NCBI GenBank assembly: GCA_964356545.1
Contig: CAYHHX010000001.1
Location: 1,918-65,917, forward strand
Reading direction: 5' to 3'
DNA length: 64,000 nt
Origin: an uncultured Candidatus Saccharibacteria bacterium
Lineage (GTDB): Bacteria; Patescibacteriota; Minisyncoccia; Minisyncoccales; Staskawiczbacteraceae
Every line of letters starts with the position of its first letter. Position 1 is the first letter of the stretch. Shown here piece by piece: positions 7,737-50,839 of the stretch. The notes below the pieces were generated by a model, which saw nothing but the letters and a program-made list of their open reading frames with translations, had not been told where the DNA came from and searched no databases. The position numbers and the translations under genes are program-made.

Positions 7737-8184
7737 ATCTTAACAAGATGAGTGATTGCTCTTTATTAAATTGAGGAGAGGAAAGTCCGAACACCATCCT
7801 GAACTGATTTATCAGTGAAGGATAAAATAGTAGTGGCTAACAGCCATCCATAGTAATATGCGAGGTGCGAACAGTGACGCCGAGTTTCGAAAGAAACAAG
7901 GCACCGAGTATATAAATTTATTTATGTGCGAGGTGAATTCAACTGAAAAGTTGAAGTGAAACGGCTAAATCCTTATTGGGTGCAAGAACAAAGTCCCGCC
8001 CCCTAAGCAGTTAATTTTTATCAGGAAAAACCTGAGAGAGCTCTAATAGATATATTTTTTTGAGTTCTTGAATTACAGCATAGGGGGCGGGATTAAAAGT
8101 AGTTCGCTTGAATCAAGAAGTAATTCTTGGTCTAGACAGATAATCACATAAAACAGAATTCGGCTTACGGTCTTGTTAAGATAA
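7737..8184 (+). ncRNA. rnpB: RNase P RNA, bacterial type A.
   Basis: P4 strands 'GAGGAAAGTCCGaACac' (~7783) and 'ACAGAAttCGGCTTAcGG' (~8153). The P1 helix is formed by 7737-7748 'atcttaacaaga' pairing with 8171-8182 'tcttgttaagat'. Confidence 0.85.
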
Positions 8185-8185
8185 C

Positions 8186-8216
8186 TAAAAACAGAGAATT
8201 TATCTCTGTTTTTAGT
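8186..8216 (+). terminator. Intrinsic terminator after rnpB.
   Basis: 'aaaaacagagaatttatctctgttttt' is a hairpin followed by a T-run. Confidence 0.7.
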
Positions 8217-8275
8217 TTATAAAAGAGAGATAAAAGAATTGTAAAATCTAAAAAAAAAGATTAATATAAAAAACT

Positions 8276-8971
8276 ATGGAGTTAAATCCAAATCCAGGTA
8301 AAAATTTAATCATTGAAGTTGATGGTAGAAAATTTGCCAGGTATCCTGTACGGACAAAATTAATAACACCAGAAGACAAAGACATCTCTTTGATTGTTAA
8401 AGAATATGTGGCCTTGCACCTTATGCCAAAAGATATTGTTTTTATAAGCGAAAAAGCTGTTTCTGTAACTCAGGGCAGGTCTTATCCTAAGAAAGAAATC
8501 ATTACGACAAAAATGGCAAATTTTTTATCGCGTTTTGTAACAAAAACTCCAATTGGCATAGGACTAGGGTCGCCTGAAACAATGCAGTTGGCTATTGAAG
8601 AAGTAGGATTATTAAGAATTTTAGTAGCTTCTTTTTTTGGATATTTTTTTAAAATTTTTAATATTAAAGGAGTGTTTTATATAATAGCAGGAAGTAAAGT
8701 AAGGTCTATTGATGGAGCGGTTGAATATGCTATACCGCCATATAATACTTATGTTTCAAAGGGTCCGCTAAAAGCAAATAAGGTGGCAGAAAAAATTTCA
8801 GAAGTATTGAAAACGCCTGTTGTTATTGTTGACGCAAATGATTTTGGAGTAAATATTTTAGGGATTAGTCAAGGTATTGATAAAAAATTAATCGCTAAAA
8901 TTATTAAAGATAATCCTTTGGGGCAGTCAGATGAGCAAACTCCCATAGGCATTATCCGGGAAATTTTTTAA
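8276..8971 (+). CDS. CofE / F420-0:gamma-glutamyl ligase-like family protein.
   Basis: C-terminal 'VDANDFGVNILGISQG...GQSDEQTPIGII' resembles the CofE-family nucleotide-binding region. Size ~230 aa fits that family. Confidence 0.4.
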   Translation: MELNPNPGKNLIIEVDGRKFARYPVRTKLITPEDKDISLIVKEYVALHLMPKDIVFISEKAVSVTQGRSYPKKEIITTKMANFLSRFVTKTPIGIGLGSPETMQLAIEEVGLLRILVASFFGYFFKIFNIKGVFYIIAGSKVRSIDGAVEYAIPPYNTYVSKGPLKANKVAEKISEVLKTPVVIVDANDFGVNILGISQGIDKKLIAKIIKDNPLGQSDEQTPIGIIREIF

Positions 8972-8978
8972 AATAATA

Positions 8979-9407
8979 ATGTTACGACAAGCAGAATTAA
9001 AAGATAAAGAAAAAATTTTAGATATTGTAAATGAATTATCTTTGGATATCTCCGATTTTATTTGGGACAAAGAAGAATTTGTGGATAAGCAAATTAAAAA
9101 TGAAGAATATTTTATTATGGAAGATGAAGATAGATTAGTGGGGGTTATGAGCTTGCGCCAGCGGAGCAATAAGGTAAGCATTGAAACATTGGCGGTTAAG
9201 AAAGAATTTCAATCTAAGGGATTTGGTAGCAAATTTATAGAATTTGCCAAGCAATTTACTAAAGAGAGAGGATTTAAAGTGTTGCACGCCTATTCTTTTA
9301 GTGAGTACCAAGCCACTGATTTCTATTTAAAAAAAGGTTTTAAGGTTTTGGACCATGCGGGATATTATAAAAATCATAAATACGACTGTTTTGAATTAAC
9401 ATTATAA
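8979..9407 (+). CDS. GNAT family N-acetyltransferase.
   Basis: Acetyl-CoA binding motif 'LAVKKEFQSKGFGSKFIEFAK'. Confidence 0.75.
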   Translation: MLRQAELKDKEKILDIVNELSLDISDFIWDKEEFVDKQIKNEEYFIMEDEDRLVGVMSLRQRSNKVSIETLAVKKEFQSKGFGSKFIEFAKQFTKERGFKVLHAYSFSEYQATDFYLKKGFKVLDHAGYYKNHKYDCFELTL

Positions 9408-9415
9408 TTTTTATC

Positions 9416-11083
9416 GTGATAAAAAAATTACTTAATATCCAAACAAAAAGCGTCAGTTTTGCCTCTTTAATTTTGGCAGGATCTTATTTTTTTTCCGCAT
9501 TATTAGGATTGTTAAGAGACCGTCTTTTAGCTGGTAAATTTGGTGCGGGTAATGAATTAGACGTATATTATACTGCTTTCACTATTCCCGATTTTATTGT
9601 TTTAATTTTAATTTTTGGCGCGATATCGTCAGCAATTGTTCCCATATTTACTTCTTATATTAATAAATCAAAAGAAGAGGCATGGCATTATACTTCAGCC
9701 CTTTTAAATGTATTTTTAGTTTTTTTAATTATTACTTGTTTATTTTTTATAATCTTTACCCCCTTTTTTGTATCGTTAATTGCGCCGGGATTTTCAGAAA
9801 GTAAAAAGGAAATGACGGTAACACTGATGAGAATAATGTTTTTGAGCCCTATACTTTTAGGTACCAGTAATATCATTAGCGGTATTTTACAAGTGTTTCA
9901 TAGATTTTTAGCTACCGCATTGGCGCCTTTAATGTACAACCTCGGGATTATTATTGGTATTGTATTTTTTACTCCAAAGCTTGGTTTGACAGGCCTTGCA
10001 TGGGGGGTAGTGCTGGGCGGGATATTACACCTTTCAATACAGATTCCGGCTATTTTACACTCTGGATTCAAGTATACGCCTTTTAAGCCAGGTCAAAAAA
10101 AACTTGATATAAAGCACCCAGGGGTTATAAAAACAATAAAATTAATGCTGCCAAGGTCGCTAGGCTTAGGAGCTAGCCAATTTAATAATATTACTATCAC
10201 GGCTATTGCATCTACTCTGGCCACTGGCAGTGTAGCCATATTTAATTTAGCAAATAATCTGGGTTCTATTTTAGTAAATGCTATTGCTATTTCACTTTCA
10301 ACCGCTATTTTCCCAAAAATGTCTTTAGCGTATTTAAGAGAAGATAAAAGAGAATTTGAAAAAAAGTTTTCTTCGGCGCTTCGCCAAATATTATTTCTAA
10401 TTATCCCAATTAGTATTTTATTGTTTATTTTAAGGGCACAAATAATAAGAGTGGTATTTGGAACTGGTAAATTTGATTGGCTTGATACAAGACTTACTGC
10501 TGCCTGCCTTGGTATTTTTAGCGTAGGATTATTTGCCCAGGGCATTATTTTTATTTTATCAAAAACTTTTTACGCCGCCCACAACACAAAAATTCCCGCA
10601 TGGATAAGTTTTATTGCTGTTGTTTTTAACATTTCTGCTAGTATTTTTTTTGTTAAGCTTTTAAATGCTTCCGGAACATTTTTTAATTTTATGCAAAATA
10701 TATTAAGGCTTGAAGGCATACATAATATTAGTATAGTCGGGTTGTCGCTGGCATATTCAATTACCGTAATTTTTCAAGCCAGTTTACTTTTATATTTCCT
10801 TTATAAAAAATATAAAACATTCAGGATAAAAGAAATATTAGGTTCTGTGTATAAAATTTTATTATCAAGCGCAATAATGGTAATTTTTGTGCTTTTGGTC
10901 AGACAATCATTGGTAAATTATAATTTTATCCAATTGCAGACATTTTTCGGGGTATTTATGCAGCTCGTAATATCGGGCACAGTTGGCGCATTTTTTTATA
11001 TTATTACCGCTTACTTTTTCAAATCACCTGAATTAAAAACAATTAAAGAGTCTTTTTTTAATGGAAAATCAAAACCAAATTAG
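9416..11083 (+). CDS. murJ: Lipid II flippase MurJ (MviN).
   Basis: N-terminal 'LLGLLRDRLLAGKFGAGNELDVYYTAFTIPDFI' is the MurJ signature. The protein is multi-pass membrane and 555 aa. Confidence 0.85.
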   Translation: MIKKLLNIQTKSVSFASLILAGSYFFSALLGLLRDRLLAGKFGAGNELDVYYTAFTIPDFIVLILIFGAISSAIVPIFTSYINKSKEEAWHYTSALLNVFLVFLIITCLFFIIFTPFFVSLIAPGFSESKKEMTVTLMRIMFLSPILLGTSNIISGILQVFHRFLATALAPLMYNLGIIIGIVFFTPKLGLTGLAWGVVLGGILHLSIQIPAILHSGFKYTPFKPGQKKLDIKHPGVIKTIKLMLPRSLGLGASQFNNITITAIASTLATGSVAIFNLANNLGSILVNAIAISLSTAIFPKMSLAYLREDKREFEKKFSSALRQILFLIIPISILLFILRAQIIRVVFGTGKFDWLDTRLTAACLGIFSVGLFAQGIIFILSKTFYAAHNTKIPAWISFIAVVFNISASIFFVKLLNASGTFFNFMQNILRLEGIHNISIVGLSLAYSITVIFQASLLLYFLYKKYKTFRIKEILGSVYKILLSSAIMVIFVLLVRQSLVNYNFIQLQTFFGVFMQLVISGTVGAFFYIITAYFFKSPELKTIKESFFNGKSKPN

Positions 11084-15288: not shown

Positions 15289-15354
15289 TGCCCCCCCAAC
15301 AAATTAACTTTATTTTGAAATATTATTTAATAATCAATATAATCAAAGTTGAGT

Positions 15355-18300
15355 ATGAATAAAATAAAAAACAATTTTCATAAAAATAAATTAGCATTCA
15401 GTAAAAAAGTGACGGCATATTTATTGATTGCATTATTTTTCTATTTTCCCTTAGAGTCGGTTTTTGCAGAAGAAAATATATCAGAAAATATAAACAAAGA
15501 AGAAACTTCGGCAAGCCAACTAGTCGATTCCGAAAAAAATAATCAAGAGAAACCTCTAGCAGAAAAAAATATTATCGGGGATACTAAAAATAATATTCAA
15601 CAAAAAGGTGAGCGTAAAAATAACGAGAAAGAAGATAATACAGACAAAAAAGAACGCAACAAGAAAAAGAAAAATGATTCGGATGATGAAGAATTAATCC
15701 AAGCGCAAGCTGCGGGTTCATCTTCAGGTTCATCTAATAATAATCAGTTTGCGTTTAACCCGGCCGCAAAGATAATGATGCCAGAAGCCGATACCACCAC
15801 CGGCGCGCTGGTGTATTCTTATCCTATCGAAGTGCCGTCGGGCAGAAATGGCATGGCTCCGAAAGTTTCACTGTATTATAATTCTCAGAAAAATGACAAT
15901 GCTTCAATAGTAGGATTTGGCTGGGATTTGGACATTCCCAAAATAGAAAGGGTTAACAAGCACGGAGTTAATAAATTATATGATTACCAAGATTTCCAAT
16001 CTTCGCTTTCCGGCGAGTTGGTGAATGTTTCCGGAAATGATTATGGCGCAAAAATAGAAAATGGTTCTTTTCTGAAATACCAATTAAATAATGAGATATG
16101 GACTACCACGGATAAAAAAGGCACTATTTACAAGTTTGGAAGTTCTAACTCATCAAAAATTTATAATTTATCAGATACAAGCAAAATTTACTCTTGGTAC
16201 TTAGATGAAATTATAGACACTAATGGAAATTTCATAAAATATACTTATATAAAAGATAATACTGATAATTTTTTGTACCCTGATAAAATAATTTATACAG
16301 GCAACGGAGAACTATCGGGGATTTTTTCAGTTGAATTTAAAAAAGAATCCAGGCCGGATTCCTATACAATCAATAACGCCGGTTTTTATCAAAAAATAGA
16401 TGAAAGAATTAATTCCATAGAAACATATATAGCCGGTAATTTAAACAGAAAGTATGATTTAACATACGGAATGGGAGACAACGGGAAGCGTTCTATGTTA
16501 GAAAAAATAACTGAAAGCGGGAGAGACAATCTTGGCATTACCGCCACCTTGCCATCTTTTGACATTGCCTATACCGAAGGAAATATTGGCTTGGCAGATG
16601 CTCCGTCAATCAGTTATCCGTGGGTTACAGAAACCGATTCAAATGGAAATTCTTATACAACGCCTTTTACATTAGCCGATCAATCTATCAGGATCATAGA
16701 TATAAACGGCGATGGGTTAAAAGATATTGTTAAGTCGTCTGTTGCCTACGGGCAATGGGGAGCTATGTATCCAAATTTTTGGGTTTTAAAAAATAATGGG
16801 TCAGGGTGGGTAGTGGATAATTCATGGAGTCAACCAACATATTCTTATGTTAACGGTAGCGGAAGAACAATAAGCGAATATTTTACTTTTTCAAACGCAA
16901 TTGACGTTGGAGATTGGAATGGCGACGGCAAAGATGATTTGATTAAATTTTGGGTTGAAAATTTAGGCGGCGGAGCAAATAAACAACATGCAGTTGTTTT
17001 GTTAAATACTGGTGCAGGTTGGACACAAAATACAAATATAGAAACAGATACGCCGACCTATATGAGTTATAATGCCGGTATACAGAATTTATACCTTTAC
17101 TCTGGCTCAAGTGGCTCTAGTCGTTTCATTGATCTTAATGGCGATGGATTGATTGACTGTATCAATGCTTGGAACCATCAAATAAATGGCATTAATTATC
17201 CATCTTTTGCAGTATTATATAACGATGGTGAAGATTTAAAATGGGATCCTACAGTGCTTCAACTATATTTTAAGAATAGTCCAACTTCAGCAAGTAGTCC
17301 GCTTGCGTTAACTAACAGCATAAAAATATTAGATATTAACGGCGACGGACTTGTTGATTTTATGTCCGCTCATAATTACCAAATAAACGGTATTGATAAC
17401 CCATCATTTTGGGTGCTAATAAACAATGGGCATGGCTGGGACCAGGATTTTGGTATAACACATCCCCGATACACTGCTCTTGATGTGAATGATAACCTAC
17501 AAACAAATTACTTTAGCAGCACTTCGGGGTGGCAAGTTGTTGATATAAACGCAGACAATTTACCTGATTTTATTATATTTGCGCCACTTAATAGCGGAGG
17601 CGGAACATATAAAAAAAGGAAAACAGTTTTAATAAATACTGGCAAGGGATGGATCCAAGATGACAGTTTGATTAATATTGGGGACTATTCGTATACATAT
17701 AACGGCAGCACACAAACTAATTATCCTAGTTCCAGCGATGCCGGCAGCGCTTTTCTTGATATTAACGGCGATGGGTTGGTTGATATTGCTCACCCATCTT
17801 TTTATCAGCAACAGGGAATTTACTATACTATTAATTGGACGCTTATAGGAAGCGGTAAAATTGCCAACACTTTGTCAAAGATAACATTACCTGAAGGTGG
17901 CTCTTATGACATTGCATATAAAATGACAAGCGCATATAGGGATGTTTTGGGAAATTTACTGAATAGTAGTTTACTATTAGCATATAATACGGTTGAAAAA
18001 ATAATTCAAAATGATGGCAATGGCATAACGCATATTGCAAATTACAAATATGAGGGAGGACATTTTTTCTATGGTAGTGCTTTTAATAAGCGTTTTGCGG
18101 GATTTAGTATAATTTACAAAAACGATTTTGCGGGCAATACAACCAAAACTTATTATCATACAGCCAATCAAAGCGATTCTAATTACGGAGAATTTCAAGA
18201 CGAATATTGGAAAATTGGTAAAGCATATAGTATAGAACAATATGATAATGCAAACCACTTATATACTAAAACTATAAACAAATGGGACAGTTTTGATTTA

Positions 18301-21300
18301 GGTGGTGGTTCAAAGTTTTTAAAGTTAGCTCAAACCGTAAATTATAATTTTGATGGCGATGCCACTCATCGAGATACAGCTGAAGGTTATACTTACGACA
18401 ATTCCAATGGTAATGTCACCCAGAAAGTTCAATGGGGCGAAGTGTCGGGGCAAGACAATGGAACATTTACTGATACTGGATCTGACAAATTTACCACTGA
18501 CTACGCTTATGCCTCCAATGCAAGCTTATCTATTGTTGGATTGCCATCAAAAGAAACGATAACAGATCAAAACTCGTTGAAGGTAAAGGAAAGCAAGTTT
18601 TATTACGATCTGCAGGCCTTAGGTAGTATTATTCAAGGGAACCTTACCAAAAAAGAGGATTGGAAAGTTGGTACTGCTTATATTAATAACCAAACAACTT
18701 ATAACAGCTACGGCTTGGCAACCGTTTCAACAGATCCGCGAGGCAAAACCACCAAGTATGTGTATGATGCTCATAATCTCTATCCTGCCACAGTAACCAA
18801 TGCCAAAAATCAATCCACTAACTATTTGTATAACTATGCTTTAGGGAAAATGACCCAGAAGACCGATCCAAGTAAAAGGGTATTTCAGTATGTCTACGAT
18901 GGATTGGGGCGTCTCATTGAAGAAAAACAACCGGATATTGCAACACCTTCAACATTAATAACAAAGGCAATCTATGTGTATACCGACACTCCAAACGCAG
19001 TAAGTGTTAAAAAATCCAGTTATTTGGACGCATTAAATTTTGCAGAATCATACACGTATTTTGATGGTTTAGGCAGAAAAATTCAGGAAAGGCAGGAGGC
19101 CGAGGGTACAGTTTTTGCCGTAAAAGATTATATCTACAATAATTTGGGTCTGATTACAAAAGAATCTCTACCTTATTTTTCAGCAAATTTGTCTAAGACT
19201 TCGCCAACCATTGATTCTGCGCTCTATATCAATTACAAATATGATGCCCTGGGCCGTGTAGTTTCTGTAACCAATGCAGTTGGCACTACCACAAATATGT
19301 ACAATGATTGGAAGCTTACGGTAATCGATGTAGGTGGTAAGTCTAAAGATTTATATAAAAATGCTTATGGCAGTTTAGTGCAGGTTGATGAGCATAACTC
19401 CCTTGATACATATAGCACATTGTATAACTACAACTATTTAGGAAACATTACTAAGATTACTGATGCGCTTTCTAATATCCGTAAATTTACTTATGATGGT
19501 TTGGGCCGTAGGTTAACCGCAGAAGATTTGCATGTATCATCAGATACAAGTTATGGTATCTGGACATATACCTATGACAATGCAGGTAACTTGACCCAAA
19601 CACTAGATCCAAATGGCCAAAAAGTAATCTACACTTACGACAACCTTAATCGTGTTCTCAAAGAGGACTATATTGGCGTTACTGGTACAGAGGCTACCTA
19701 TGCCTATGATGCTGGAACAGACGGCATTGGTAAATTAACCAATGTTATTAATAGCTCAATTACTAAAAACTATACCTACAATGCTTTGGGTTTATTGAAA
19801 AAAGAAACAGATAAGTTTGGCCTTACTATCTACATCACGACATATAGTTACGATAGGCAAGGCAACCAGACTACAGTTACCAATCCAGATAATTCTAAGG
19901 TGCAATATATTTACAACACAGCAGGCTTGCTTGACCAGGTCAAACGCAAGGAATCCATTGATAGCGCGTTTGTTAGTGTTGTCAATAATTTTGATTATTC
20001 TCCCGAGGGCAAAGTTACTATTCAGGAAAACTATAACGGAACAACGAACACTAATACGTATGATGTTGCCAAGCTCTACCGATTAACTAGTAAAGTTGCC
20101 ACCACTGCTAACGGAGACCGCATCCAGGATTTAAGCTACACATATGATTTAGTAGGTAATATCACTAAAATTGTAGATGCGTCCACCACTGCAACCGCCA
20201 AAACTTCCGACTACACATATGATGACCTCTATCGTTTAACCTCTGTAACTGTAACAGGCGTTGCTGTTGGCCAAGAGCCATACATTCAAACGTATAGTTA
20301 TGATGCAATAGGAAATATCATTACAAAATCGGATGTTGTTGGATCTTATATATATGACGGTACTATCTACGCCAATCCCCATGCAGTCACTATCATTGGT
20401 TCTGCAACTTTTTCGTACGATAACAATGGCAATCTGTTAAACTCTACCAGCGGTTTTATTAATACATGGGACTATAAGAATCGTTTAATACAATCAGTCA
20501 AAGAAACAATAACAAACAGCTACGGATATGATGCCGAAGGCCAAAGAGTAAAATTAATTACCGCCGATAAAAACACTTATTATCCAACTAAATCCTATAA
20601 CATTACTTTTCTAAATTCTGATACCCAAAACCCAACATCTATTACAAAGCACATCTTTGCAAACAGCATAGACATTGCTACAATAGAAGGCACAGGGGCA
20701 ACTTCTCAAATCTACTACGCATCCAAGGATTTACTGAACAGCTCTAGCATCATAACCGACAGTGTTGGCGTAATTGCTGAGACTATGGATTACTTCCCAT
20801 TCGGCGGAATCAGAATAGACCAAAAAGTCACTGGCAGCTCTTTCTCGGAACAACGTAAATTCATCGGCCAGGAATACGACCAAGACACAGGCCTAAACTA
20901 TCTTAATGCGAGATACTACAACGCAACTATTGGAAGGTTCATTTCCCAAGACCCAATGTTTTGGCAACTGCCAAATGAGCTACTCGCCGACCCGCAACAA
21001 TTGAATTCCTATTCCTACGCCCGCAATAACCCGATAATAGGTAGTGACCCGAGCGGGTTATTAACCGTCATTGTTCCTGGAACCAGCTATAATTCAAAAG
21101 ATTGGTCGTCTTCTGGCTCGATGTCAAATTTTATCTCTTCAGTTGGCAAGACCTTCAATGAAACACATCAAACAAGTGTGATAAACGATAAAAGTAATTG
21201 GTCGGGTGGCGATAATTCTAATGCTCGTCAAAAAGCAGCAGAACATATCACAGGGTTTATAAAAGACTATAAGTTTGCTGATGGAGAACAGTTAAACATT

Positions 21301-21729
21301 GTTGGACATAGCCATGGCGGAAATATTGGAATTCTTGTTAGTCAAAAAACAGAAAGAAAAATAGATAATCTTGTAACTCTTGGTACTCCAGCTAGAAGCG
21401 ATTACCAACCAAATTATGATATGGTGGGACGTCACATAAATGCATACAGTAATGTAGATATGATACAGGGAGGCGGAGGTGGACAAACAAATTTATCTGC
21501 AGTGCTTCTTGGGACTGTTGGTAATGCTTTTGGTATTCCTGGAGCAATTATTGGATATGCGCTTGGTAATATATTAGGCTGGGGAGAATTTGGTTCTGCC
21601 GGTAGAAAATTTAGTGGAGCGGAAAACATTAGTGTAACTAAAGAAGCTGGTCGTTTTAGTCCCTTTAGTTCTCATTCTAATTTATTGCAAAGTAGCGTTT
21701 GGTCAAGGGTTGATAAATTAATTAAGTAG
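15355..21729 (+). CDS. Giant secreted polymorphic toxin: signal peptide, SpvB-like domain, FG-GAP/VCBS-like repeats, RHS/YD repeats, RHS core (DPxGL), and a C-terminal alpha/beta-hydrolase (lipase/esterase-like) toxin domain.
   Basis: Signal peptide 'KKVTAYLLIALFFYFPLESVFA'. SpvB-like 'GMAPKVSLYYNSQ...IVGFGWDLDIPKIER'. Repeated 'DINGDGLxD' / 'DWNGDGKDD' motifs. Numerous YD repeats ('YTYDxxGNL', 'YxYDxLxRL'). RHS core 'RYYNATIGRFISQDP...NSYSYARNNPIIGSDPSGLL'. The C-terminus carries 'IVGHSHGGNI' (a GHSxG nucleophile elbow). ATG 15355 is preferred over the TTG at 15349. Confidence 0.85.
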   Translation: MNKIKNNFHKNKLAFSKKVTAYLLIALFFYFPLESVFAEENISENINKEETSASQLVDSEKNNQEKPLAEKNIIGDTKNNIQQKGERKNNEKEDNTDKKERNKKKKNDSDDEELIQAQAAGSSSGSSNNNQFAFNPAAKIMMPEADTTTGALVYSYPIEVPSGRNGMAPKVSLYYNSQKNDNASIVGFGWDLDIPKIERVNKHGVNKLYDYQDFQSSLSGELVNVSGNDYGAKIENGSFLKYQLNNEIWTTTDKKGTIYKFGSSNSSKIYNLSDTSKIYSWYLDEIIDTNGNFIKYTYIKDNTDNFLYPDKIIYTGNGELSGIFSVEFKKESRPDSYTINNAGFYQKIDERINSIETYIAGNLNRKYDLTYGMGDNGKRSMLEKITESGRDNLGITATLPSFDIAYTEGNIGLADAPSISYPWVTETDSNGNSYTTPFTLADQSIRIIDINGDGLKDIVKSSVAYGQWGAMYPNFWVLKNNGSGWVVDNSWSQPTYSYVNGSGRTISEYFTFSNAIDVGDWNGDGKDDLIKFWVENLGGGANKQHAVVLLNTGAGWTQNTNIETDTPTYMSYNAGIQNLYLYSGSSGSSRFIDLNGDGLIDCINAWNHQINGINYPSFAVLYNDGEDLKWDPTVLQLYFKNSPTSASSPLALTNSIKILDINGDGLVDFMSAHNYQINGIDNPSFWVLINNGHGWDQDFGITHPRYTALDVNDNLQTNYFSSTSGWQVVDINADNLPDFIIFAPLNSGGGTYKKRKTVLINTGKGWIQDDSLINIGDYSYTYNGSTQTNYPSSSDAGSAFLDINGDGLVDIAHPSFYQQQGIYYTINWTLIGSGKIANTLSKITLPEGGSYDIAYKMTSAYRDVLGNLLNSSLLLAYNTVEKIIQNDGNGITHIANYKYEGGHFFYGSAFNKRFAGFSIIYKNDFAGNTTKTYYHTANQSDSNYGEFQDEYWKIGKAYSIEQYDNANHLYTKTINKWDSFDLGGGSKFLKLAQTVNYNFDGDATHRDTAEGYTYDNSNGNVTQKVQWGEVSGQDNGTFTDTGSDKFTTDYAYASNASLSIVGLPSKETITDQNSLKVKESKFYYDLQALGSIIQGNLTKKEDWKVGTAYINNQTTYNSYGLATVSTDPRGKTTKYVYDAHNLYPATVTNAKNQSTNYLYNYALGKMTQKTDPSKRVFQYVYDGLGRLIEEKQPDIATPSTLITKAIYVYTDTPNAVSVKKSSYLDALNFAESYTYFDGLGRKIQERQEAEGTVFAVKDYIYNNLGLITKESLPYFSANLSKTSPTIDSALYINYKYDALGRVVSVTNAVGTTTNMYNDWKLTVIDVGGKSKDLYKNAYGSLVQVDEHNSLDTYSTLYNYNYLGNITKITDALSNIRKFTYDGLGRRLTAEDLHVSSDTSYGIWTYTYDNAGNLTQTLDPNGQKVIYTYDNLNRVLKEDYIGVTGTEATYAYDAGTDGIGKLTNVINSSITKNYTYNALGLLKKETDKFGLTIYITTYSYDRQGNQTTVTNPDNSKVQYIYNTAGLLDQVKRKESIDSAFVSVVNNFDYSPEGKVTIQENYNGTTNTNTYDVAKLYRLTSKVATTANGDRIQDLSYTYDLVGNITKIVDASTTATAKTSDYTYDDLYRLTSVTVTGVAVGQEPYIQTYSYDAIGNIITKSDVVGSYIYDGTIYANPHAVTIIGSATFSYDNNGNLLNSTSGFINTWDYKNRLIQSVKETITNSYGYDAEGQRVKLITADKNTYYPTKSYNITFLNSDTQNPTSITKHIFANSIDIATIEGTGATSQIYYASKDLLNSSSIITDSVGVIAETMDYFPFGGIRIDQKVTGSSFSEQRKFIGQEYDQDTGLNYLNARYYNATIGRFISQDPMFWQLPNELLADPQQLNSYSYARNNPIIGSDPSGLLTVIVPGTSYNSKDWSSSGSMSNFISSVGKTFNETHQTSVINDKSNWSGGDNSNARQKAAEHITGFIKDYKFADGEQLNIVGHSHGGNIGILVSQKTERKIDNLVTLGTPARSDYQPNYDMVGRHINAYSNVDMIQGGGGGQTNLSAVLLGTVGNAFGIPGAIIGYALGNILGWGEFGSAGRKFSGAENISVTKEAGRFSPFSSHSNLLQSSVWSRVDKLIK

Positions 21730-22081: not shown

Positions 22082-22390
22082 ATGCCGAGGGTTCATAGAG
22101 TTGATATTAAAGAAGAGATATACCATATCATCAATCGCGCCAACGCACGGTTGCCGATTTTTTTTAACGAAGAAGATTATGTGCTATTTGAATTGATATT
22201 TGAGCAGGCGAAAGAAAGATTTGATATGCGTATCTTAGCATATTGCTTAATGCCAAATCATTTTCACTTGGTGTTGTGGCCAAAAGAAGATGACGACCTC
22301 CAAAAATTTATGCAATGGATTACCTTAACCCACACCCAGCGTTGTAAATGGGGTCAGCCACCATTTAATAATAAGTATGGTATACTGTAA
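22082..22390 (+). pseudogene. Truncated IS200/IS605-like HuH tyrosine transposase (RAYT, 5' fragment), cut by a REP insertion.
   Basis: Shares 'IYHIINRANARLPIF...YCLMPNHFHLVLWPKEDDDLQKFMQW' with the intact downstream copy but stops after 102 aa. The disrupted codons run through the REP 'aaatggggtcagccaccattt' (22346-22366). Confidence 0.65.
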
Positions 22391-22392
22391 GT

Positions 22393-23067
22393 ATGCCAAG
22401 AACAACAAGAACAGATGTTGCGCAAGAAATATACCATGTATTGAACAGAGCTAATGCCAGAGTGCAGATTTTTGATGACGATAAAGATTATCTAGATTTC
22501 GAAAAAATATTACAAGAAGCAGTAGAAAAGTTTAATATGGGGCTATTGGCGTATTGTATTATGCCGAACCACTGGCATTTAGTCCTGCATCCAAAACAAG
22601 ACGGCGATCTTGCTAAATTCATGGGATGGCTTTCAAATACCCATACGCGAAGATGGCATACCCAAAAGGGAACCATTGGACAAGGACATCTTTATCAGGG
22701 AAGATACAAGTCATTTTTATGCCAGCAAGATGATCATTTTATTACATTAGTTTTATATGTTGAGCGCAATGCAAAAAAGGCTGACTTGTGTAAGTTAGCT
22801 CAGGATTGGAAGTGGTCTAGCATTTGGCGAAGGGAGAGTGGATTGGCAGAGCAGACTGCGATTTTAGAGAAATGGCCGATTGATATGCCAAAAAATTATT
22901 TATCACTAGTTAATCAAAATCAAGACGCGAACGAAGAAGAAAGAATTGAAAAAGCCATTGATAAAAGTAATCCATATGGAGATACTCATTGGATTCAGAA
23001 AGTAGTTAAAAAGTTTGGTCTTGAGCAAACATTAAGAAGGGTGGGGAGGCCAAAGAATGGTGGCTGA
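22393..23067 (+). mobile_element. REP-associated tyrosine transposase (RAYT, IS200-like Y1 HuH transposase), apparently intact.
   Basis: HuH motif 'MPNHWHLVLHP' and catalytic-Tyr region 'GHLYQGRYKSF'. Its 3' end abuts the REP 'gaatggtggctgaccctaatttcc' (23056-23078). REPs of the same family are spread through the window. Confidence 0.75.
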
Positions 23068-26754: not shown

Positions 26755-26810
26755 AATTTAAAATAAAAAAAACGAGTATAATAACTCGTTTTTTTTATTT
26801 ATTAGGATTA

Positions 26811-28484
26811 CTATGCCTTTTGCGTGTTTATATGATTTTCTGCGTATTCAAATGTACCACCAACTTTTTTGCCTGGATTAAAAATGTTCAATGGATCAAA
26901 AATTTGCTTGGTTTTAGCAAATAAATCACATACTTTTTGGCCATACATTTGCAGTAAAAAAGGAGTGCGAATAATACCATCGTTATGCTCTGATGTTATA
27001 GTGCCATTAAATTTTATAATAAGACCGTATATTTCTTTTGAAAGCGTCATAATTATTTTTTTTGATTTTGGATTAGTAAGGTCCATCAATGGAATAATGT
27101 GAAAATTACCGTCGCCCAAATGGCCCGCAATAGTATATATAAGCTTGTATCGATTTAAAATTTCGTAAAGTTTTGGAAGGAATTCTGGCAAGTAGTCGGC
27201 CCTAACTGAAAAGTCATCAATAAAAGGGGCAGTTCTTAACTTTCTCACATGCTTTCTTAATAAACTAAAACTTTCTCTTCTTATTACCCAAAATTCTTCC
27301 GTTTCTTCGTCGCTTTGAGAAACGCGCATTTTAATTTTATTTCCCAGAGCTTTATGCAGAGCTTCTTTGGCATTTTGCGCAGTTTTATCTGCTTCTTCTG
27401 CTGTATCTGCGGTAAACTCTGCCAGTAAAACTAATTTTGGGATTCCACCAGTAATAATAAGCCAAAGTTCAGGCAGTGTTTTTAATATAATTTTTATCAT
27501 ACTGGATTTAACTCGATGCAAGATTTCTGGGAAAAATCTAATGGCAAGTTTAAATGTGTTGTCGTCGTAGGTTTCAAGGCTTCCGGGATTGAAAGGTAGA
27601 ATAATGCTACTTAATTTTGAAACCAAAGATAGGTCTTTTATAAATACAATAAGTAATTTTGAATATTTTTGAGGATGAATAAGATTAAGTTTTACTTTTG
27701 TCATAAAACCCAATGTTCCTTGCGCTCCAACAATAAGCTTTGCTATATTAAATGTACGGGCTTGTTTATCGTAAACGTCCCACAAAGAGTATCCAGCCGA
27801 ATTTTTAGTAACATTTGGCTTAGCTGTTTTAACAAGGTCATAATTATCGTTGATTAACTTAAACATTTCTTTGTATATTTGCCCTTCGAAATTTTCTAAA
27901 GCCATTTTTTCTTGCAACTGAGTTTCTGTAATTTTTGAAAATTCATATTCATTTCCGTCTGCTAATACCATAGTTAGCGATTCAACATATCGCTCGGTTT
28001 TGCCATAGCGCAAGGTTTTTTCTCCACCAGAGTTATTATTAACAATGCCTCCCATAGCGCAAAGTTCGCGCGAAGCCGGATAACTTGGTAAGATAAGATT
28101 TTTAGTTAAAGTTTGTTTTTCAAAATCTCTGTAATACATTCCCGGTTCTACGATAGCGTAGTCGTCTCCTAGTTCTAATAAATGGTTAAAGTATTTGGTA
28201 AATTCCACCACGATGCTTTCGGTGAGTGGTCCGCCAGTCATGTCGGTTCCGGCTGAACGGGCAGTAAGCGAAACATTGCGTCCATTCTTTTTTTCTTGTG
28301 CGACAAAACGGATTAATTTTTTAATATCTTCTACATTTTTGGGAAATACCACTAATGCCGGTTTTACAAAAAAAAGACTGGCATCAGTGGAGTATTGTAA
28401 AAGCGTAGCAGGGGAGTCGTCTACATCGCCGTCTATATTAAGATTTTTTATTTCGTCTGATAGCATGGGTTCATTATAATTCAA
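26811..28484 (-). CDS. FAD-linked oxidase (D-lactate dehydrogenase / GlcD-like, PCMH-type FAD-binding).
   Basis: N-terminal FAD_binding_4-like region 'ALVVFPKNVEDIKKLIRFVAQEKKNGRNVSLTARSAGTDMTGG' and a C-terminal FAD-oxidase_C-like region with 'GHLGDGNFH'. Confidence 0.75.
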   Translation of the reverse strand: MNYNEPMLSDEIKNLNIDGDVDDSPATLLQYSTDASLFFVKPALVVFPKNVEDIKKLIRFVAQEKKNGRNVSLTARSAGTDMTGGPLTESIVVEFTKYFNHLLELGDDYAIVEPGMYYRDFEKQTLTKNLILPSYPASRELCAMGGIVNNNSGGEKTLRYGKTERYVESLTMVLADGNEYEFSKITETQLQEKMALENFEGQIYKEMFKLINDNYDLVKTAKPNVTKNSAGYSLWDVYDKQARTFNIAKLIVGAQGTLGFMTKVKLNLIHPQKYSKLLIVFIKDLSLVSKLSSIILPFNPGSLETYDDNTFKLAIRFFPEILHRVKSSMIKIILKTLPELWLIITGGIPKLVLLAEFTADTAEEADKTAQNAKEALHKALGNKIKMRVSQSDEETEEFWVIRRESFSLLRKHVRKLRTAPFIDDFSVRADYLPEFLPKLYEILNRYKLIYTIAGHLGDGNFHIIPLMDLTNPKSKKIIMTLSKEIYGLIIKFNGTITSEHNDGIIRTPFLLQMYGQKVCDLFAKTKQIFDPLNIFNPGKKVGGTFEYAENHINTQKA

Positions 28485-28632: not shown

Positions 28633-29712
28633 TTATAACAATTCGGATGGGTATTTTAAGCTTCCACTTTTATACGCCGCCGCCTTAGAATAATACTTTA
28701 TATTTTCTCCAAAACCATCAATATCTTTTCTTATAAAATCCTTAGTTTCCCTGCCAAAATAACCCTCTTCTGGTACAAATTTAATTTTATCCTTTGAATT
28801 TTGTAATATTAATTGAGGAATATTTAATCCCAACTGACACAATGCAAAAATCCAAGCTGGACTTCTGGGATTTATTTCATAGATATAATATGCGTCTTTA
28901 TTTTTTATGCTCTCAATCTCTATAATGCTTGTCCCAAAAGGAATTAATTCTACCAAGTATTCAGCAAATTCAAATAATTCTTTATTTTTATCAATTTTCC
29001 CGAACCAAGTGGCTCCATTTTGGTCTCTTCCTATTTTAACCATCTCTGCATATCCCACGATTTTATTATTTTTTATACCTATCACACAGTTACGAAATTC
29101 CACCTCTTCATTAGTAATATATTTTTGAACGAGACAATTAACCTCTCCATTGTTCCAAATATTAGATAACTTTTTTATATTTGAAATAAGATCCGTTTCA
29201 TTTTCACAAGGATACGCTCCCTTAACAAGCCCTTTGCATATTACAGGATAACCAATTTTTTCTGCGTAATTTATTGCTTCTTTTATAGAATTTACCTGTT
29301 TTGTTTCTGGTGTCTTATAATTTTTGTATTTTACTATTTTTGGTAAATTTATTTTTTGAATTTTTTTAAGAACTTCCCTTGTCGGTATCATTAATTTTAC
29401 ACCGATATGTTCAATTTTTTCTTTAATAAAAGAGAACAAAATTGCGGTTTCGTCGTAACAAGGGAATATGTAGTCTAATCCATATATTTTTTTGACATTG
29501 ATTATTTTATTGATCAAGGAGTCAAAATTGAGAGTTCTTATTTCTTCCCAACAAAAAACCTCTTCAAATAAATTTTTATCTGAAGTAACGAATGAAGTAT
29601 CGTCCACCCCAATAATTTTAAATCCTGCATCTTTTAAACATCGGCTTACGCCAATGCCAGCTTGGGGACTGTCAATCACCTTTAAATCACTCACAATTAT
29701 TATTTTATTCAT
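28633..29712 (-). CDS. ATP-grasp domain ligase.
   Basis: ATP-grasp core 'GYPVICKGLVKGAYPCENETDLISNIKKL...EVNCLVQKYI...YIYEINPRSPAWIF'. Start taken at the Met right after the upstream stop (29712) rather than the longer ORF. Confidence 0.6.
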   Translation of the reverse strand: MNKIIIVSDLKVIDSPQAGIGVSRCLKDAGFKIIGVDDTSFVTSDKNLFEEVFCWEEIRTLNFDSLINKIINVKKIYGLDYIFPCYDETAILFSFIKEKIEHIGVKLMIPTREVLKKIQKINLPKIVKYKNYKTPETKQVNSIKEAINYAEKIGYPVICKGLVKGAYPCENETDLISNIKKLSNIWNNGEVNCLVQKYITNEEVEFRNCVIGIKNNKIVGYAEMVKIGRDQNGATWFGKIDKNKELFEFAEYLVELIPFGTSIIEIESIKNKDAYYIYEINPRSPAWIFALCQLGLNIPQLILQNSKDKIKFVPEEGYFGRETKDFIRKDIDGFGENIKYYSKAAAYKSGSLKYPSELL

Positions 29713-30772
29713 ATACTTTAATTGATGGTATTGGAGAGATAAAATTAGACGCCTGGCTAAAAGAATACGCTCCAACATTGTGAATTATTATTTTATCTCC
29801 AACCACAGGTTTTTGATTGATTATTAAATTTTCAGCGATCTTATCAATTTGCATGCAAGAATTACCAAAAATATTTATCTTTATAATTTCCTCTTTTTTA
29901 TTTTTTTGTTTTGGCATAAATTCAATCCAAAATTTCTTCTCAAAATAACATTGAAAGTGCATAATATTTGTATCTACGACCACATCAAAATAACTATTTG
30001 TATTTTTTCTAATGGAAATTATATTCGCCTCAATATCCATGGTATCTGATACAATATTCCTGCCTGCTTCGCTAATTATTTTAATTTTAGGGAAGATATT
30101 TTTTATTAATAAAGGAAGTTTTTCATAGATATCTTTTTCAAAAATAAATTCATTAGCCGCAGGTAATCCTCCTCCAATATTAACAAAAGTTATTTCGTGT
30201 TTTATTCTATCAAAAGTGCTTTGAATACCATTAAGTAAAAATTCGTAATTAGATAGCTTGAAATTATTAGTTGAAAAATGGAAATGAAGTCCGTCTAATT
30301 TTAAAGTAGTTATTAATAAATTTAACTTTTCTGATAATTTTTCATCGGAAATACTGTATCCGAACCTATTCCATATCTCCGGCTTATTAAAATATAAACG
30401 TAAACCCACCTTTATTTTTGACAAAAACCCTTCTTTTTTTAAAATCTGTAAAGTATCAAAATCGGTATCGTTATCAATATTAAAGTATAAAATTTCTACA
30501 TTATTTAAAATGTCTTTTATGGTCTCGACCGATTTACCAGGACCGTTCAACACTAATTCTTTCGGTTTAATTTTTCGAATTAACTCCCATTCATAACCTG
30601 AAACTATTTCAAACGCGCCACCTGTCTCTTTTACAGTTTCCAAAACTGGTTCCATAAAATTAGTTTTTACCGAATAAAATAATTGAAAATTTAAGCCTTT
30701 TTTTAAAAAGGCGTTTTTTAATTTATTTATATTTTCTTTTCTTTTATTTTTATGGACTATATAGTATGCCAT
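29705..30772 (-). CDS. PLP-dependent decarboxylase of the alanine-racemase-fold family (DAP / ornithine / carboxy(nor)spermidine decarboxylase-like).
   Basis: 'FYSVKTN' (PLP-Lys region), 'GLHFHFSTNN' and 'FVNIGGGLP'. 355 aa, shorter than LysA. Tightly coupled to its neighbours (1-nt intergenic gap). Confidence 0.65.
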   Translation of the reverse strand: MAYYIVHKNKRKENINKLKNAFLKKGLNFQLFYSVKTNFMEPVLETVKETGGAFEIVSGYEWELIRKIKPKELVLNGPGKSVETIKDILNNVEILYFNIDNDTDFDTLQILKKEGFLSKIKVGLRLYFNKPEIWNRFGYSISDEKLSEKLNLLITTLKLDGLHFHFSTNNFKLSNYEFLLNGIQSTFDRIKHEITFVNIGGGLPAANEFIFEKDIYEKLPLLIKNIFPKIKIISEAGRNIVSDTMDIEANIISIRKNTNSYFDVVVDTNIMHFQCYFEKKFWIEFMPKQKNKKEEIIKINIFGNSCMQIDKIAENLIINQKPVVGDKIIIHNVGAYSFSQASNFISPIPSIKVYE

Positions 30773-31618
30773 TTAAATCACTTTCTTTTTTAAATAATAA
30801 AAATAATCGTTGTCAGTTTCATAAAATTCCCGATATTGATTGAGAATATTTAAATCAAATTTAACAGTGTGTAAATAGGAAGAATTCTTATTATTGGTTT
30901 TATAAACTAATCCCAATGGCGGAACCACAAAGTAAGAACCACCCATCATTCTATCCGAGTAAAAAGAAGATTTATACTTTCCAACAGAATTTACAAATAA
31001 AAGAGCGCATGCGTTCTCGTAAGCCCTGGCTATACCCAAAGCATCATAATATTTTTTTTCCAAAGAAAAAGAATATTTTGACTGAAGCGCATTTCCCCCT
31101 ATTCCCCAAAAAGAAGGAATTACAATTAAATCCACTTTCTTGGTATATTTCCTGAATATTTCTGGCAATATCAAATCCCAGCAAATAGCCACTCCAACTC
31201 TTACTTTCCCCACATTGAATGTTATTATTTTGTCATCCGATTCACAAATATAATTTTCGTTATAAATTAAAGCCTTTTTGTGATATTCCTTCAGAATTTT
31301 GCCATTTTTAATAACCAAGGAGGTGTTAAAATACTTACCATTCTTTTTCAAAAGTACTGAACCCATCACAAAAGTTAACGAAGGATATAATTTTGAAATA
31401 TCCTTCAATGTATTTTGTACTTCCAAAGAAGAAATCTCTTTTTCATATTCTGGTATAATATCTAATTTAAGAGGACCAGACAAAAAATATTCTGGGAATA
31501 TAAGTAAATCAAGAGATTTTATCTGTTTTTTATTTTTTTCCAGTAATTTCTTAACTTCTTGGATATTTTCTTTAACAGATAAAAATTTTGGCAAGTATTG
31601 AAAAAAACCTATTTTCAT
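30773..31618 (-). CDS. Carbon-nitrogen hydrolase (nitrilase/amidase superfamily).
   Basis: Glu-Lys-Cys triad contexts 'LLIFPEYF', 'YHKKALI' and 'GVAICWDL'. Confidence 0.8.
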   Translation of the reverse strand: MKIGFFQYLPKFLSVKENIQEVKKLLEKNKKQIKSLDLLIFPEYFLSGPLKLDIIPEYEKEISSLEVQNTLKDISKLYPSLTFVMGSVLLKKNGKYFNTSLVIKNGKILKEYHKKALIYNENYICESDDKIITFNVGKVRVGVAICWDLILPEIFRKYTKKVDLIVIPSFWGIGGNALQSKYSFSLEKKYYDALGIARAYENACALLFVNSVGKYKSSFYSDRMMGGSYFVVPPLGLVYKTNNKNSSYLHTVKFDLNILNQYREFYETDNDYFYYLKKKVI

Positions 31619-31666
31619 AATTTTATAAAATATCCCCTGCTATTTACGGCAAGGGATGGTAACTTT

Positions 31667-32653
31667 TCAGAGTATGTCGTTGAAATAACTGTCTCTGTTC
31701 CAACTCAACATTGGTTTGATCTTTGCTTTATATTCTCGGCACACCGCCAAGAATGGTCTGCGTATACGCCATTTTTCTCCTTCAAAGCGCAATTCCTTTA
31801 TTCTTCTTATCCAGTTGATATTGTGTCCTAATTCCTTAGATACCGTTGTGGGACTTTTTTTCTGCCATCCCAATCTCCTTATTATGGGGTCAATAATATA
31901 ACAAGAAGCACCGTAAAGTTGCTCGTCGCAAATGCCAAGTTCGCTAATCAACGGTTTCCTATCAATTATGCATTGCGGAACTTTTAACATTTCCGCAATT
32001 TTGTAAACTTCGCATTTGTAAAAATCTGCCAATGGAGAGAAGTGACCGGCTGGACCACCAACAGTAAAGGCTCCCAAAATAACCTCCGTACCATTGGTAG
32101 TTCCAGTACATACTGCATTAAGATTATCTGCTATCTGCAGAAGCAGAATTGACCTAATCCTTGGCAGTATTCCACTTAACTCCCATTTCCCGCAATTCGG
32201 GAAAATCCCATACAGCGAGTTTACAGTGGAAGAAATATCTACGTACTGATACTCCATCCCCATTTCTTTCGCAGATTTTACTGCATACAACACGTCTTCG
32301 TATTCCGAGTCAGTCATTTCGCCCTTTTTTCCAAATGATCCCCTCCCCAAAATAATCCCTTTAAAGAAATAACGTGTGTCTTTGAGAGCTTTTTGACACA
32401 GCGATGCCACCGTTATGGAATCAATACCGCCAGAAAGCCCCACTACAATTCCGTCTAATTCTGGCTTTGAATACCCAGAAATATCTTTGAGGCATTTTCT
32501 TATAAATTTCTGTATGCCTTCAACAACTTTAACAGGAATGATAATGTTTTCAGGCTTAATCCTTGCGTCAAAATTAATTTCTCCATCGTTAGCGATGGGA
32601 AACCACATTTTAATTTCAGGATCTACGACTTTTGTGACGATGGCTTTAGCCAT
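31667..32653 (-). CDS. nadE: NH3-dependent NAD+ synthetase-like protein (PP-loop ATP pyrophosphatase).
   Basis: PP-loop 'VVGLSGGIDS' and 'CTGTTNGTEVILGAFTVGGPAGHFSPLADFYKCEVYKIAEMLKVP', as in NadE. Confidence 0.7.
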   Translation of the reverse strand: MAKAIVTKVVDPEIKMWFPIANDGEINFDARIKPENIIIPVKVVEGIQKFIRKCLKDISGYSKPELDGIVVGLSGGIDSITVASLCQKALKDTRYFFKGIILGRGSFGKKGEMTDSEYEDVLYAVKSAKEMGMEYQYVDISSTVNSLYGIFPNCGKWELSGILPRIRSILLLQIADNLNAVCTGTTNGTEVILGAFTVGGPAGHFSPLADFYKCEVYKIAEMLKVPQCIIDRKPLISELGICDEQLYGASCYIIDPIIRRLGWQKKSPTTVSKELGHNINWIRRIKELRFEGEKWRIRRPFLAVCREYKAKIKPMLSWNRDSYFNDIL

Positions 32654-50670: not shown

Positions 50671-50839
50671 AGTACACGAGGGGTGCATACATCTGCATCC
50701 CTTTTTCTTTATTATTTTTCTAGATAGTTATAAAATATATATCTTTATGTAGGGGTGGTAGAGGGATTACTAATTTGGGTGCAACCAAATTATTTAAAGG
50801 TTCAACTCCTTTCCCCTACTCTGCCATTTTTTAATAAAA

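Follow-up and report, generated by a model that had tools for sequence, protein, structure and literature searches.

Organization of the locus

This work concerns a cassette of four genes on the minus strand of a 64,000-nt stretch of DNA from an uncultured patescibacterium (positions 1,918 to 65,917 of contig CAYHHX010000001.1, assembly GCA_964356545.1), which was analysed as a whole and is referred to here as the window. In cassette order the genes code for a NadE-like PP-loop ATP-pyrophosphatase, a CN-hydrolase, a fold-III pyridoxal 5'-phosphate (PLP) decarboxylase and an ATP-grasp ligase. An earlier note on the same DNA had drawn attention to the last three, and for these the open reading frames (ORFs) are present where it had placed them and the Pfam assignments agree with its reading. 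The features of the locus, in window coordinates, are the following:

31667-32653, minus strand: NadE-like PP-loop ATP-pyrophosphatase, 328 aa (Pfam NAD_synthase, PF02540, 109 bits)
31632-31657, minus strand: 9-bp stem-loop followed by a weak T-rich tail, within the 48 nt that separate the NadE-like gene from the CN-hydrolase gene (terminator-like scan)
30773-31618, minus strand: CN-hydrolase of the nitrilase superfamily, 281 aa (Pfam CN_hydrolase, 84.7 bits)
29705-30772, minus strand: fold-III (alanine-racemase fold) PLP decarboxylase, 355 aa (Pfam Orn_Arg_deC_N, 70.6 bits, and Orn_DAP_Arg_deC, 27.1 bits)
28633-29712, minus strand: divergent ATP-grasp ligase, 359 aa (weak but consistent Pfam ATP-grasp matches; AlphaFold model; Foldseek)
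28636-28692, minus strand: C-terminal tail of the ATP-grasp protein, residues 341-359, YSKAAAYKSGSLKYPSELL, conserved and predicted to be disordered
26811-28484, minus strand: FAD-linked oxidase (Pfam FAD_binding_4 and FAD-oxidase_C)

The decarboxylase and ATP-grasp genes share an 8-nt overlap, ATGAATAA, just as had been described, whereas the CN-hydrolase/decarboxylase junction, for which a 1-nt spacer had been claimed, reads TAAATG and has a spacer of 0 nt. The start of the ATP-grasp gene was placed at 29712, inside the overlap, and the start of the longest ORF (29778) was not used. The unit had been taken to consist of three genes. The trio stands, its boundary does not: the NadE-like gene also belongs to the conserved unit and had been missed. 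The presence of this gene upstream led us to reread the CN-hydrolase as a probable glutaminase subunit. The stem-loop in the spacer between these two genes has a folding energy of -15.8 kcal/mol (z = -3.0), and is retained in the closest named relative (locus L009), where a U.G pair is replaced by C-G. At other loci this junction is mostly an overlap or a gap of 3-16 nt, and in one (L012) it measures 117 nt.

The NadE-like gene differs from the rest of the cassette in base composition. Its GC content in the window is 0.40, vs. 0.27-0.30 for the other three genes. Counting the window together with 10 of 10 loci compared (L006-L019), it exceeds these three by roughly 4 to 17 points; the other three are usually under the local GC average. 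Amino-acid composition, expression level or a separate origin may account for the gap.

Conservation and distribution of the cassette

A search of 185,579 species genomes yielded 12 loci, and a metagenome scan 50. In all 47 loci that had room for the whole cassette the four genes are colinear and lie on one strand (ORF/phmmer tally), the NadE-like gene comes first, and the CN-hydrolase gene is adjacent to it or overlaps it; the partial loci, 22 of 22, are interrupted by contig ends. Across loci, most neighbouring genes overlap or are separated by no more than 13 nt. Distant homologs of the decarboxylase (50-58% identity) located on long contigs were each accompanied by the same four-gene order. 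Recurrence of the gene order in 47/47 loci is far above chance. The tightly coupled operon that the earlier note had postulated is borne out by the order and near-zero spacing of these related loci, and its proposal to look for co-occurrence in other genomes found a plain answer in the four genes staying together.

The flanks differ in every independent locus (TrmD, NusB, RecG, tRNA ligases, HAD, PIN, Fic, a recombinase, a methylase), which shows that the cassette is self-contained. In one locus (L007) it adjoins ftsA, murG, ftsW and mraY, a cell-wall neighbourhood that occurs in one lineage only, and in another (L006) a spermidine-synthase-like gene lies about 7 kb downstream. Around independent loci no gene for a carrier, a transporter or a regulator is conserved. 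The earlier note had advised checking for a carrier-protein gene nearby; neither an acyl-carrier protein (ACP) nor any other carrier is conserved near the cassette. The cassette is a self-contained, strictly conserved, translationally coupled unit found at varied genomic sites.

The FAD-linked oxidase does follow the ATP-grasp gene, as had been noted, after a gap of 148 nt, but it is not part of the unit: it was seen on the window's own contigs only, is missing even from L009, and was ruled out as a cassette member for this lack of conservation. It is an enzyme of the GlcD/YdiJ type, D-2-hydroxyacid dehydrogenase-like (YdiJ model 263 bits, cut-off 1350), and behind its gene comes a long AT-rich hairpin (26761-26800).

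With the patterns used the cassette is rare among species genomes (the 12 matches mentioned above). Where the source gives an organism name, this is usually one of the candidate phyla radiation (CPR, Patescibacteria); we suspect that the few metagenome-assembled genomes (MAGs) with other labels are binning errors. The window itself matches contigs from Hainich groundwater. Its closest named relative is a Candidatus Staskawiczbacteria MAG, also CPR, whose locus (L009) codes for a decarboxylase 88% identical to that of the window. Searches for a connection with phages gave no anti-phage defence match in PADLOC, no relative of the decarboxylase in IMG/VR, and in PHROGs nothing beyond generic NAD-synthetase and nitrilase matches. 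On these grounds a defence system and a phage origin were both rejected. Full-text literature searches found no description of this gene combination.

Some cassettes carry frameshifts (L007/L018 at 7151-7858, L048, L051, L054, L055, L061 and L063), with a truncated CN-hydrolase or a split decarboxylase or ATP-grasp ORF, and these are either sequencing errors or decaying copies. One predicted protein, P0117 (499 aa), resembles a chimeric decarboxylase/ATP-grasp product.

The NadE-like protein and the CN-hydrolase

The NadE-like protein exceeds the cut-off of the nadE domain model TIGR00552 (102 vs. 64) but fails the equivalog models for NadE, PRK13980 (116 vs. 255) and PRK13981 (55 vs. 479). 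Its best match in the PDB is 2e18, and its predicted model has the NadE fold, the top Foldseek matches being all NadE. The SGGxDS PP-loop (as GLSGGIDS), the Glu of NxxE and the RxR motif are retained. One motif is not: the acceptor and ammonia-site motif G[YF]xTxxGD is kept in every true NAD or nicotinamide mononucleotide (NMN) synthetase that we aligned (2e18, 3p52, 1xng, 3fiu, 4xfd and the fused enzymes), but every cassette member has [GAS]A[FY][ST]xGGP in its place. In NAD synthetases the aromatic residue (Tyr/Trp) of this motif stacks on the nicotinate ring, and its Asp is strictly conserved, being in tbNadE the last ammonia-transfer site (PMC6946656). The cassette proteins also form a well separated clade: 64 homologs are at least 55% identical, and after them comes a gap down to true NadE at 25-29%.

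Compared with two-subunit NadE, the cassette protein is longer by about 60 residues at its N-terminus and contains an insertion of about 10 residues inside the chain. At the other end, about 30 residues past the E.KR..P motif align with the tail of the fused glutamine-dependent enzymes, in a MAFFT alignment of a region where the model has low confidence. A long C-terminal extension is a signature of two-component glutamine-dependent enzymes (type C of De Ingeniis et al., PMC3376133). We propose that the NadE-like protein is the synthetase (S) subunit of a glutamine-dependent amidoligase, and that its acceptor site has been remodelled.

No second NadE homolog was found elsewhere within the 64-kb window. 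In one locus (L052, 2523-3521, minus strand) a PP-loop/NadE-like paralogue, very divergent and with its loop degenerated to SG-IDS, stands head-to-head with a full cassette. This paralogue is a homolog (181 bits) of the NadE-like gene in the L073 cluster described below.

The candidate for the other half of such an amidoligase is the CN-hydrolase. Glu43, Lys114 and Cys146 are invariant across 13 loci, and we take them to be the catalytic triad; mean column identity across these loci, which span several lineages, is 75%. All 13 members have as their best NCBIfam match the NAD+ synthase PRK13981 (glutaminase domain), marginally ahead of other nitrilase branches. The model for aguB is also among the matches, with 48.9 bits against a cut-off of 410. 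The CN-hydrolase is the probable glutaminase (G) subunit, feeding ammonia to the NadE-like enzyme.

The decarboxylase

When the family profile of the decarboxylase was compared with PDB sequences, the highest score was obtained with the N-citrylornithine decarboxylase FigC/FslC (7kh2, 148.8 bits), followed by LysA (94), ornithine decarboxylase (ODC, about 84), SbnH (75) and BtrK (46.9 bits). Lys36, His165, Gly200-202, Glu235, Arg238, Cys306 and Tyr336 are invariant in the family, and their putative catalytic roles were mapped by homology to FigC and ODC. The invariant loop Cys306-Met307-Gln308 is equivalent to C354-M355-Q356 of FigC, in which Met takes the place of the acidic residue that binds the free distal amine in ODC, arginine decarboxylase (ADC) and diaminopimelate decarboxylase (DAPDC) (PMC7857480). 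The same study describes a clade that is unrelated to polyamine synthesis and acts on an already conjugated amino acid, with FigC, SbnH, AcsE, MccE and BtrK as members alongside DAPDC (PMC7857480). The cassette decarboxylase is a FigC/FslC-like member of this polyamine-unrelated clade, FigC being the closest match.

The similarity to FigC does not extend to the substrate. The residues that contact citrate in FigC (T327, T330, Y331, H357, R387) correspond to C275, E278, K279, I309 and Q340 in the cassette enzyme; with Cys275, Glu278 and Lys279 of the specificity helix in place of Thr327, Thr330 and Tyr331 of FigC, citrylornithine is not the substrate. The positions on this helix read Cys, Glu, Lys, Lys instead of Asp. 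Furthermore, the cassette decarboxylase is about 80 residues shorter than FigC, it fails the exception-level FslC model NF041039 (100 vs. cut-off 500), and a synthetase of the NRPS-independent siderophore (NIS) type was present in none of the loci examined.

Other members of the fold-III family were considered and rejected. LysA was excluded by the score with TIGR01048 (100 vs. 298), by Cys275 standing at the position of the distal-carboxylate Arg and by the Met after Cys306. The earlier note had offered a carboxy(nor)spermidine decarboxylase (CANSDC, NspC) as an alternative; this did not hold, the score with TIGR01047 being 32 against a cut-off of 409 bits, and no CANSDC chain in the PDB matched at E <= 1e-8. 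ODC and ADC were ruled out by active-site residues (Met instead of Asp/Glu after the catalytic Cys), and BtrK by its score, which is below those of FigC, LysA and ODC.

The ATP-grasp protein and its tail

The AlphaFold model of the ATP-grasp protein has a mean predicted local distance difference test score (pLDDT) of 86.6, with the last 25-35 residues or so not confident. Foldseek places it close to biotin carboxylase and carbamoyl-phosphate synthetase (template-modelling score about 0.67, E about 1e-16), with PurT also near, and so confirms the three-domain ATP-grasp fold. Throughout the family Glu279, Asn281 and Arg283 do not vary, and we read them as the Mg/ATP motif (E-x-N-x-R) of ATP-grasp enzymes. 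The family comprises 82 homologs, all at least 39% identical, located on CPR or unassigned metagenome contigs only. It is neither RimK (rimK_fam 28 vs. cut-off 143) nor Ddl: the window protein matches no Ddl model, and Dala_Dala_lig_C was touched weakly by 5 of 40 family members. Together with the LysA score these results agree with the impression recorded in the earlier note that the genes do not belong to a standard housekeeping pathway.

The Lys-rich end of the protein, predicted to be disordered (pLDDT < 50), is conserved. Lys343, Tyr347, Lys348, Pro355 and Ser356 are invariant. Of the 45 distinct C-termini, 37 carry the tail motif in its strict form, four have close variants and the remaining four are cut or frameshifted. 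The tail is a candidate for a built-in partner, carrier or recognition peptide, and the substrate may be tethered by way of it.

Distant relatives of the ATP-grasp/decarboxylase pair

In an exhaustive profile search with the ATP-grasp family the next tier (120-210 bits) was made up of uncharacterised ATP-grasps of the PRK12767 type, single or in tandem. Each of those located on a contig long enough to show neighbours adjoins a fold-III decarboxylase; the L080 contig, too short for this, was left aside. The distant decarboxylases match the profile of the CPR decarboxylases with 122-172 bits, which indicates that the ATP-grasp/decarboxylase pair is old and co-inherited, and the four that were translated (L071, L072, L073, L075) have a C-M-Q or C-M-A loop. 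PqqD-like peptide-recognition genes stand beside related pairs in L072, L074, L077 and L079, and some relatives among L072, L074 and L077-L079 contain a urea-transporter-like domain in one protein with an M23 peptidase or with SIR2 plus Macro. A separate precursor peptide gene and a PqqD-like (RiPP recognition element, RRE) gene are both absent from the CPR cassette.

In L073 the order is decarboxylase, ATP-grasp, a 54-aa ORF and a different NadE-like gene, a homolog of which in L052 adjoins the complete CPR cassette. Immediately behind the ATP-grasp gene, L071, L073 and L075 have small ORFs that contain a K-G-x3-K-h-P-S motif (SKGVTTKVPSY, GKGATGKIPSY and GKGSPSKLPSH), which the CPR tail resembles with a five-residue insert. 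The strict form of the motif was seen three times, always right after the ATP-grasp, vs. about 0.015 occurrences by chance (an estimate for approximately 90,000 residues translated). The equivalence of tail and small peptide is suggestive, a lead and not a result.

Three of the clusters (L072 at 3668-9490, L077 at 196-4835 and L079 at 432-7327) combine a PqqD-like protein, a single or tandem ATP-grasp (about 710 aa) and a fold-III decarboxylase, and in L072 and L077 the urea-transporter-like domain is fused to SIR2 plus Macro or to the M23 peptidase. These clusters seem to form a peptide-modifying system not described so far. The small ORF of L071 (2915-3010, plus strand; 31 aa, TTG start, MPKKKKKKTKLAISKGVTTKVPSYLKKKKKK) lies 84 nt after the ATP-grasp gene and has a GC-rich core flanked by poly-Lys runs; the contig is archaeal-looking and also carries L7Ae and S28e genes.

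A possible pathway and its alternatives

All four proteins keep invariant residues at the expected catalytic positions, and the decarboxylase carries the active-site loop of enzymes that decarboxylate an amino acid conjugated by its side chain to a larger acid. We suggest, with a probability of about 0.5, that the cassette codes for one pathway in which a substrate is ligated, decarboxylated and amidated, possibly guided by or tethered to the tail. The ATP-grasp enzyme would spend ATP on joining a carboxylate to an amino-acid side chain by an amide (or ester) bond. The decarboxylase would then strip the free alpha-carboxylate from the conjugate to leave an amine, and the NadE-like enzyme would adenylate a remaining carboxylate and convert it to a carboxamide with ammonia that the CN-hydrolase subunit sets free from glutamine. 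Such a pathway would yield a small amide or amine metabolite, or a modification; the product is probably a small amide or amine, and not NAD, lysine or a standard polyamine. More speculatively, the disordered tail of the ATP-grasp protein, which in distant relatives may be matched by a separate small peptide, would guide or tether the substrate. We infer the order of the steps, the substrates and the role of the tail; the findings on the genes themselves are observed. A bolder version, which we put forward tentatively and hold to be clearly less probable, would make the cassette the CPR form of a widespread, undescribed peptide-guided or peptide-tethered class built on an ATP-grasp and a FigC-like decarboxylase, with the partner peptide fused as the tail and a NAD-synthetase paralogue plus glutaminase recruited for a carboxylate other than that of NAD synthesis, to make a new metabolite or protein modification.

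It must be noted that several observations weigh against the ligation-decarboxylation-amidation pathway. Every sequence or fold neighbour of the NadE-like protein is a NAD or NMN synthetase, the TIGR00552 cut-off is still passed, and the protein may simply make NAD. The CN-hydrolase is nearly equally similar to several nitrilase branches, and its assignment as a glutaminase is argued mainly from adjacency. The order of the steps follows the analogy with FigA/FigC only. As to the tail, the motif that it shares with the small peptides is short and was picked after inspection, and a hidden Markov model (HMM) of the CPR tails did not retrieve the small ORFs at E <= 10.

The first of these points leads to the strongest competitor, in which the NadE-like protein and the CN-hydrolase are an ordinary two-subunit glutamine-dependent NAD+ synthetase of the Thermus thermophilus type, the cell's own, and the decarboxylase and ATP-grasp are unrelated operon-mates. 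Besides the domain score and the PDB and fold matches, it can draw on the apparent long C-terminal extension, on the top NCBIfam match of the CN-hydrolase, and on the 64-kb window having no other NadE homolog; moreover, clustered synthetase and nitrilase genes of T. thermophilus do give a functional glutamine-using complex (PMC3376133). It is harder to reconcile with the clade-wide loss of G[YF]xTxxGD, with the failed equivalog model PRK13980, and with a clade that never occurs apart from the decarboxylase and the ATP-grasp in the 47 loci. The 12 matches in 185,579 species genomes mean that this is not the general NadE of CPR bacteria, and in L073 a related decarboxylase/ATP-grasp/peptide cluster, differently ordered, comes with a NadE-like gene of a second clade. 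We consider the split synthetase unlikely, and keep it as a serious contender because the family and fold match is real and the search for another NadE covered the window.

The remaining alternatives have much smaller chances. Glutamine amidotransferases such as MurT/GatD, AsnB1/LtsA and AsnH amidate stem-peptide carboxylates, and one can imagine a role in lysine or peptidoglycan synthesis, with the decarboxylase acting as LysA or on the diaminopimelate (DAP) of the stem peptide, the ATP-grasp as a Ddl-like or cross-bridge ligase, and the stem-peptide carboxylate being amidated. The clade of the decarboxylase also holds DAPDC, the window encodes MurJ and an LD-carboxypeptidase, and the L007 cassette stands beside cell-wall genes; such neighbours are confined to one lineage, all other flanks being unrelated, and the lysA score, the Cys aligned with the distal-carboxylate Arg of LysA and the lack of a Ddl-family match for the window ATP-grasp make this role improbable. 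Still less probable is a polyamine pathway, in which the decarboxylase would yield putrescine, agmatine, cadaverine or (nor)spermidine, the CN-hydrolase would be N-carbamoylputrescine amidase and the ATP-grasp would conjugate the polyamine. Fold-III decarboxylases do include ODC, ADC and CANSDC, aguB is among the CN-hydrolase matches and L006 has its spermidine-synthase-like gene, but the nspC and aguB scores are far below their cut-offs (32 vs. 409 and 49 vs. 410), Met instead of the amine-binding Asp/Glu follows the catalytic Cys, the specificity helix lacks Asp, and neither agmatine deiminase nor ureohydrolase is present. The polyamine theme that the earlier note had seen in S-adenosylmethionine decarboxylase (AdoMetDC) fragments was not recovered either: the Pfam scan of window ORFs of at least about 100 aa found no AdoMetDC. 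The same note had likened the ligase and decarboxylase to BtrJ and BtrK of butirosin side-chain synthesis. The general idea, a ligase together with a decarboxylase that acts on the conjugate, survives; the closest relative of the decarboxylase is FigC/FslC and not BtrK. Gamma-glutamylation and decarboxylation on a phosphopantetheinyl ACP would fit an ATP-grasp gene adjoining that of a fold-III decarboxylase, as in BtrJ/BtrK, and BtrK does belong to the same broad clade as FigC and DAPDC (PMC7857480); with BtrK scoring 46.9 vs. 148.8 bits for FigC, no ACP or other carrier conserved in independent flanks and no other butirosin-type genes, we give this possibility very little weight.

Comparison with known systems

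It is instructive to compare the cassette with systems that share parts of it. T. thermophilus TTC1538/TTC1539 (PMC3376133) likewise consists of a gene for a single-domain NadE-family synthetase beside one for a stand-alone nitrilase-family protein, with the PP-loop, an apparent long C-terminal extension and Glu/Lys/Cys at the triad positions. Unlike it, the cassette protein lacks G[YF]xTxxGD, has additional N-terminal and internal residues and scores below the equivalog cut-off, and in the cassette a decarboxylase and an ATP-grasp always go with the pair. The FigA/FigC (FslA/FslC) route to rhizoferrin and decarboxylases of the SbnH/AcsE type (PMC7857480) provide the scheme of ligating first and then decarboxylating the conjugated amino acid, and FigC is the closest solved relative of the cassette decarboxylase, with a Cys-Met-Gln loop that has no acidic residue for a free distal amine. 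The differences are that the cassette ligase is an ATP-grasp and not a NIS synthetase, that there is no transporter, and that the citrate-binding residues are changed. To our knowledge CPR bacteria are not siderophore producers.

In butirosin synthesis BtrJ, BtrK and BtrI also combine an ATP-grasp with a fold-III decarboxylase on a tethered amino acid, and the cassette tail could act as a carrier; BtrK is a far weaker match than FigC or LysA, and the cassette has no ACP and has instead a NadE-like amidoligase and a glutaminase. An ATP-grasp enzyme and an amidotransferase work together in the synthesis of N-acetylglutaminylglutamine amide (NAGGN), as Ngg and AsnO. In fosfazinomycin synthesis FzmA, an asparagine-synthetase-like PP-loop enzyme, modifies the C-terminal carboxylate of a peptide on a ribosomal scaffold peptide (PMC13622209). 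Both examples resemble the cassette as proposed here in the capping of carboxylates by an ATP-grasp working with a PP-loop amidoligase, and scaffold-peptide systems of the FzmA type in that relatives of the cassette ATP-grasp are accompanied by PqqD-like proteins or small peptides. The cassette differs from them in having a PP-loop enzyme of the NadE family with a nitrilase-type glutaminase, and no separate precursor peptide gene.

Other features of the window

A class A RNase P RNA identifies the window as bacterial. It lies at 7740-8183 on the plus strand and barely reaches the Rfam gathering score (100.1 vs. 100), which we suspect reflects the divergence of the CPR RNA. Also on the plus strand, a 2126-aa RHS/YD-repeat protein with a SpvB domain (15349-21729) precedes a pair of adjacent ORFs, each with a match to the IS200/IS605 Y1 transposase (22082-23067); this mobile or toxin region lies about 5 kb away from the cassette. 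ARAGORN predicts a tRNA at 50749-50821 (plus strand) whose anticodon it leaves undetermined, with two bases ('gc'), where Rfam gives no tRNA at the gathering threshold. The window further encodes three NUDIX proteins, HIT, CYTH, Maf, an NTPase, MurJ and LdcA.

Biological implications

The enzyme families represented in the cassette are all known; their four-gene arrangement is new. CPR bacteria have very small genomes with few recognisable biosynthetic pathways, and that a self-contained cassette is kept in them under strong purifying selection makes it likely that its product is useful to the cell. Should the cassette turn out to be a plain split NAD synthetase with two accessory enzymes, it would be of modest interest. 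If the NadE-like enzyme no longer makes NAD, the cassette would be a clear case of reuse of the NAD synthetase scaffold and its glutaminase partner for another carboxylate, and would call for caution with the automatic annotation 'NAD+ synthase' in CPR genomes. The related ATP-grasp/decarboxylase pairs that are accompanied by PqqD-like proteins or small peptides point to a larger, unstudied system in bacteria and archaea.

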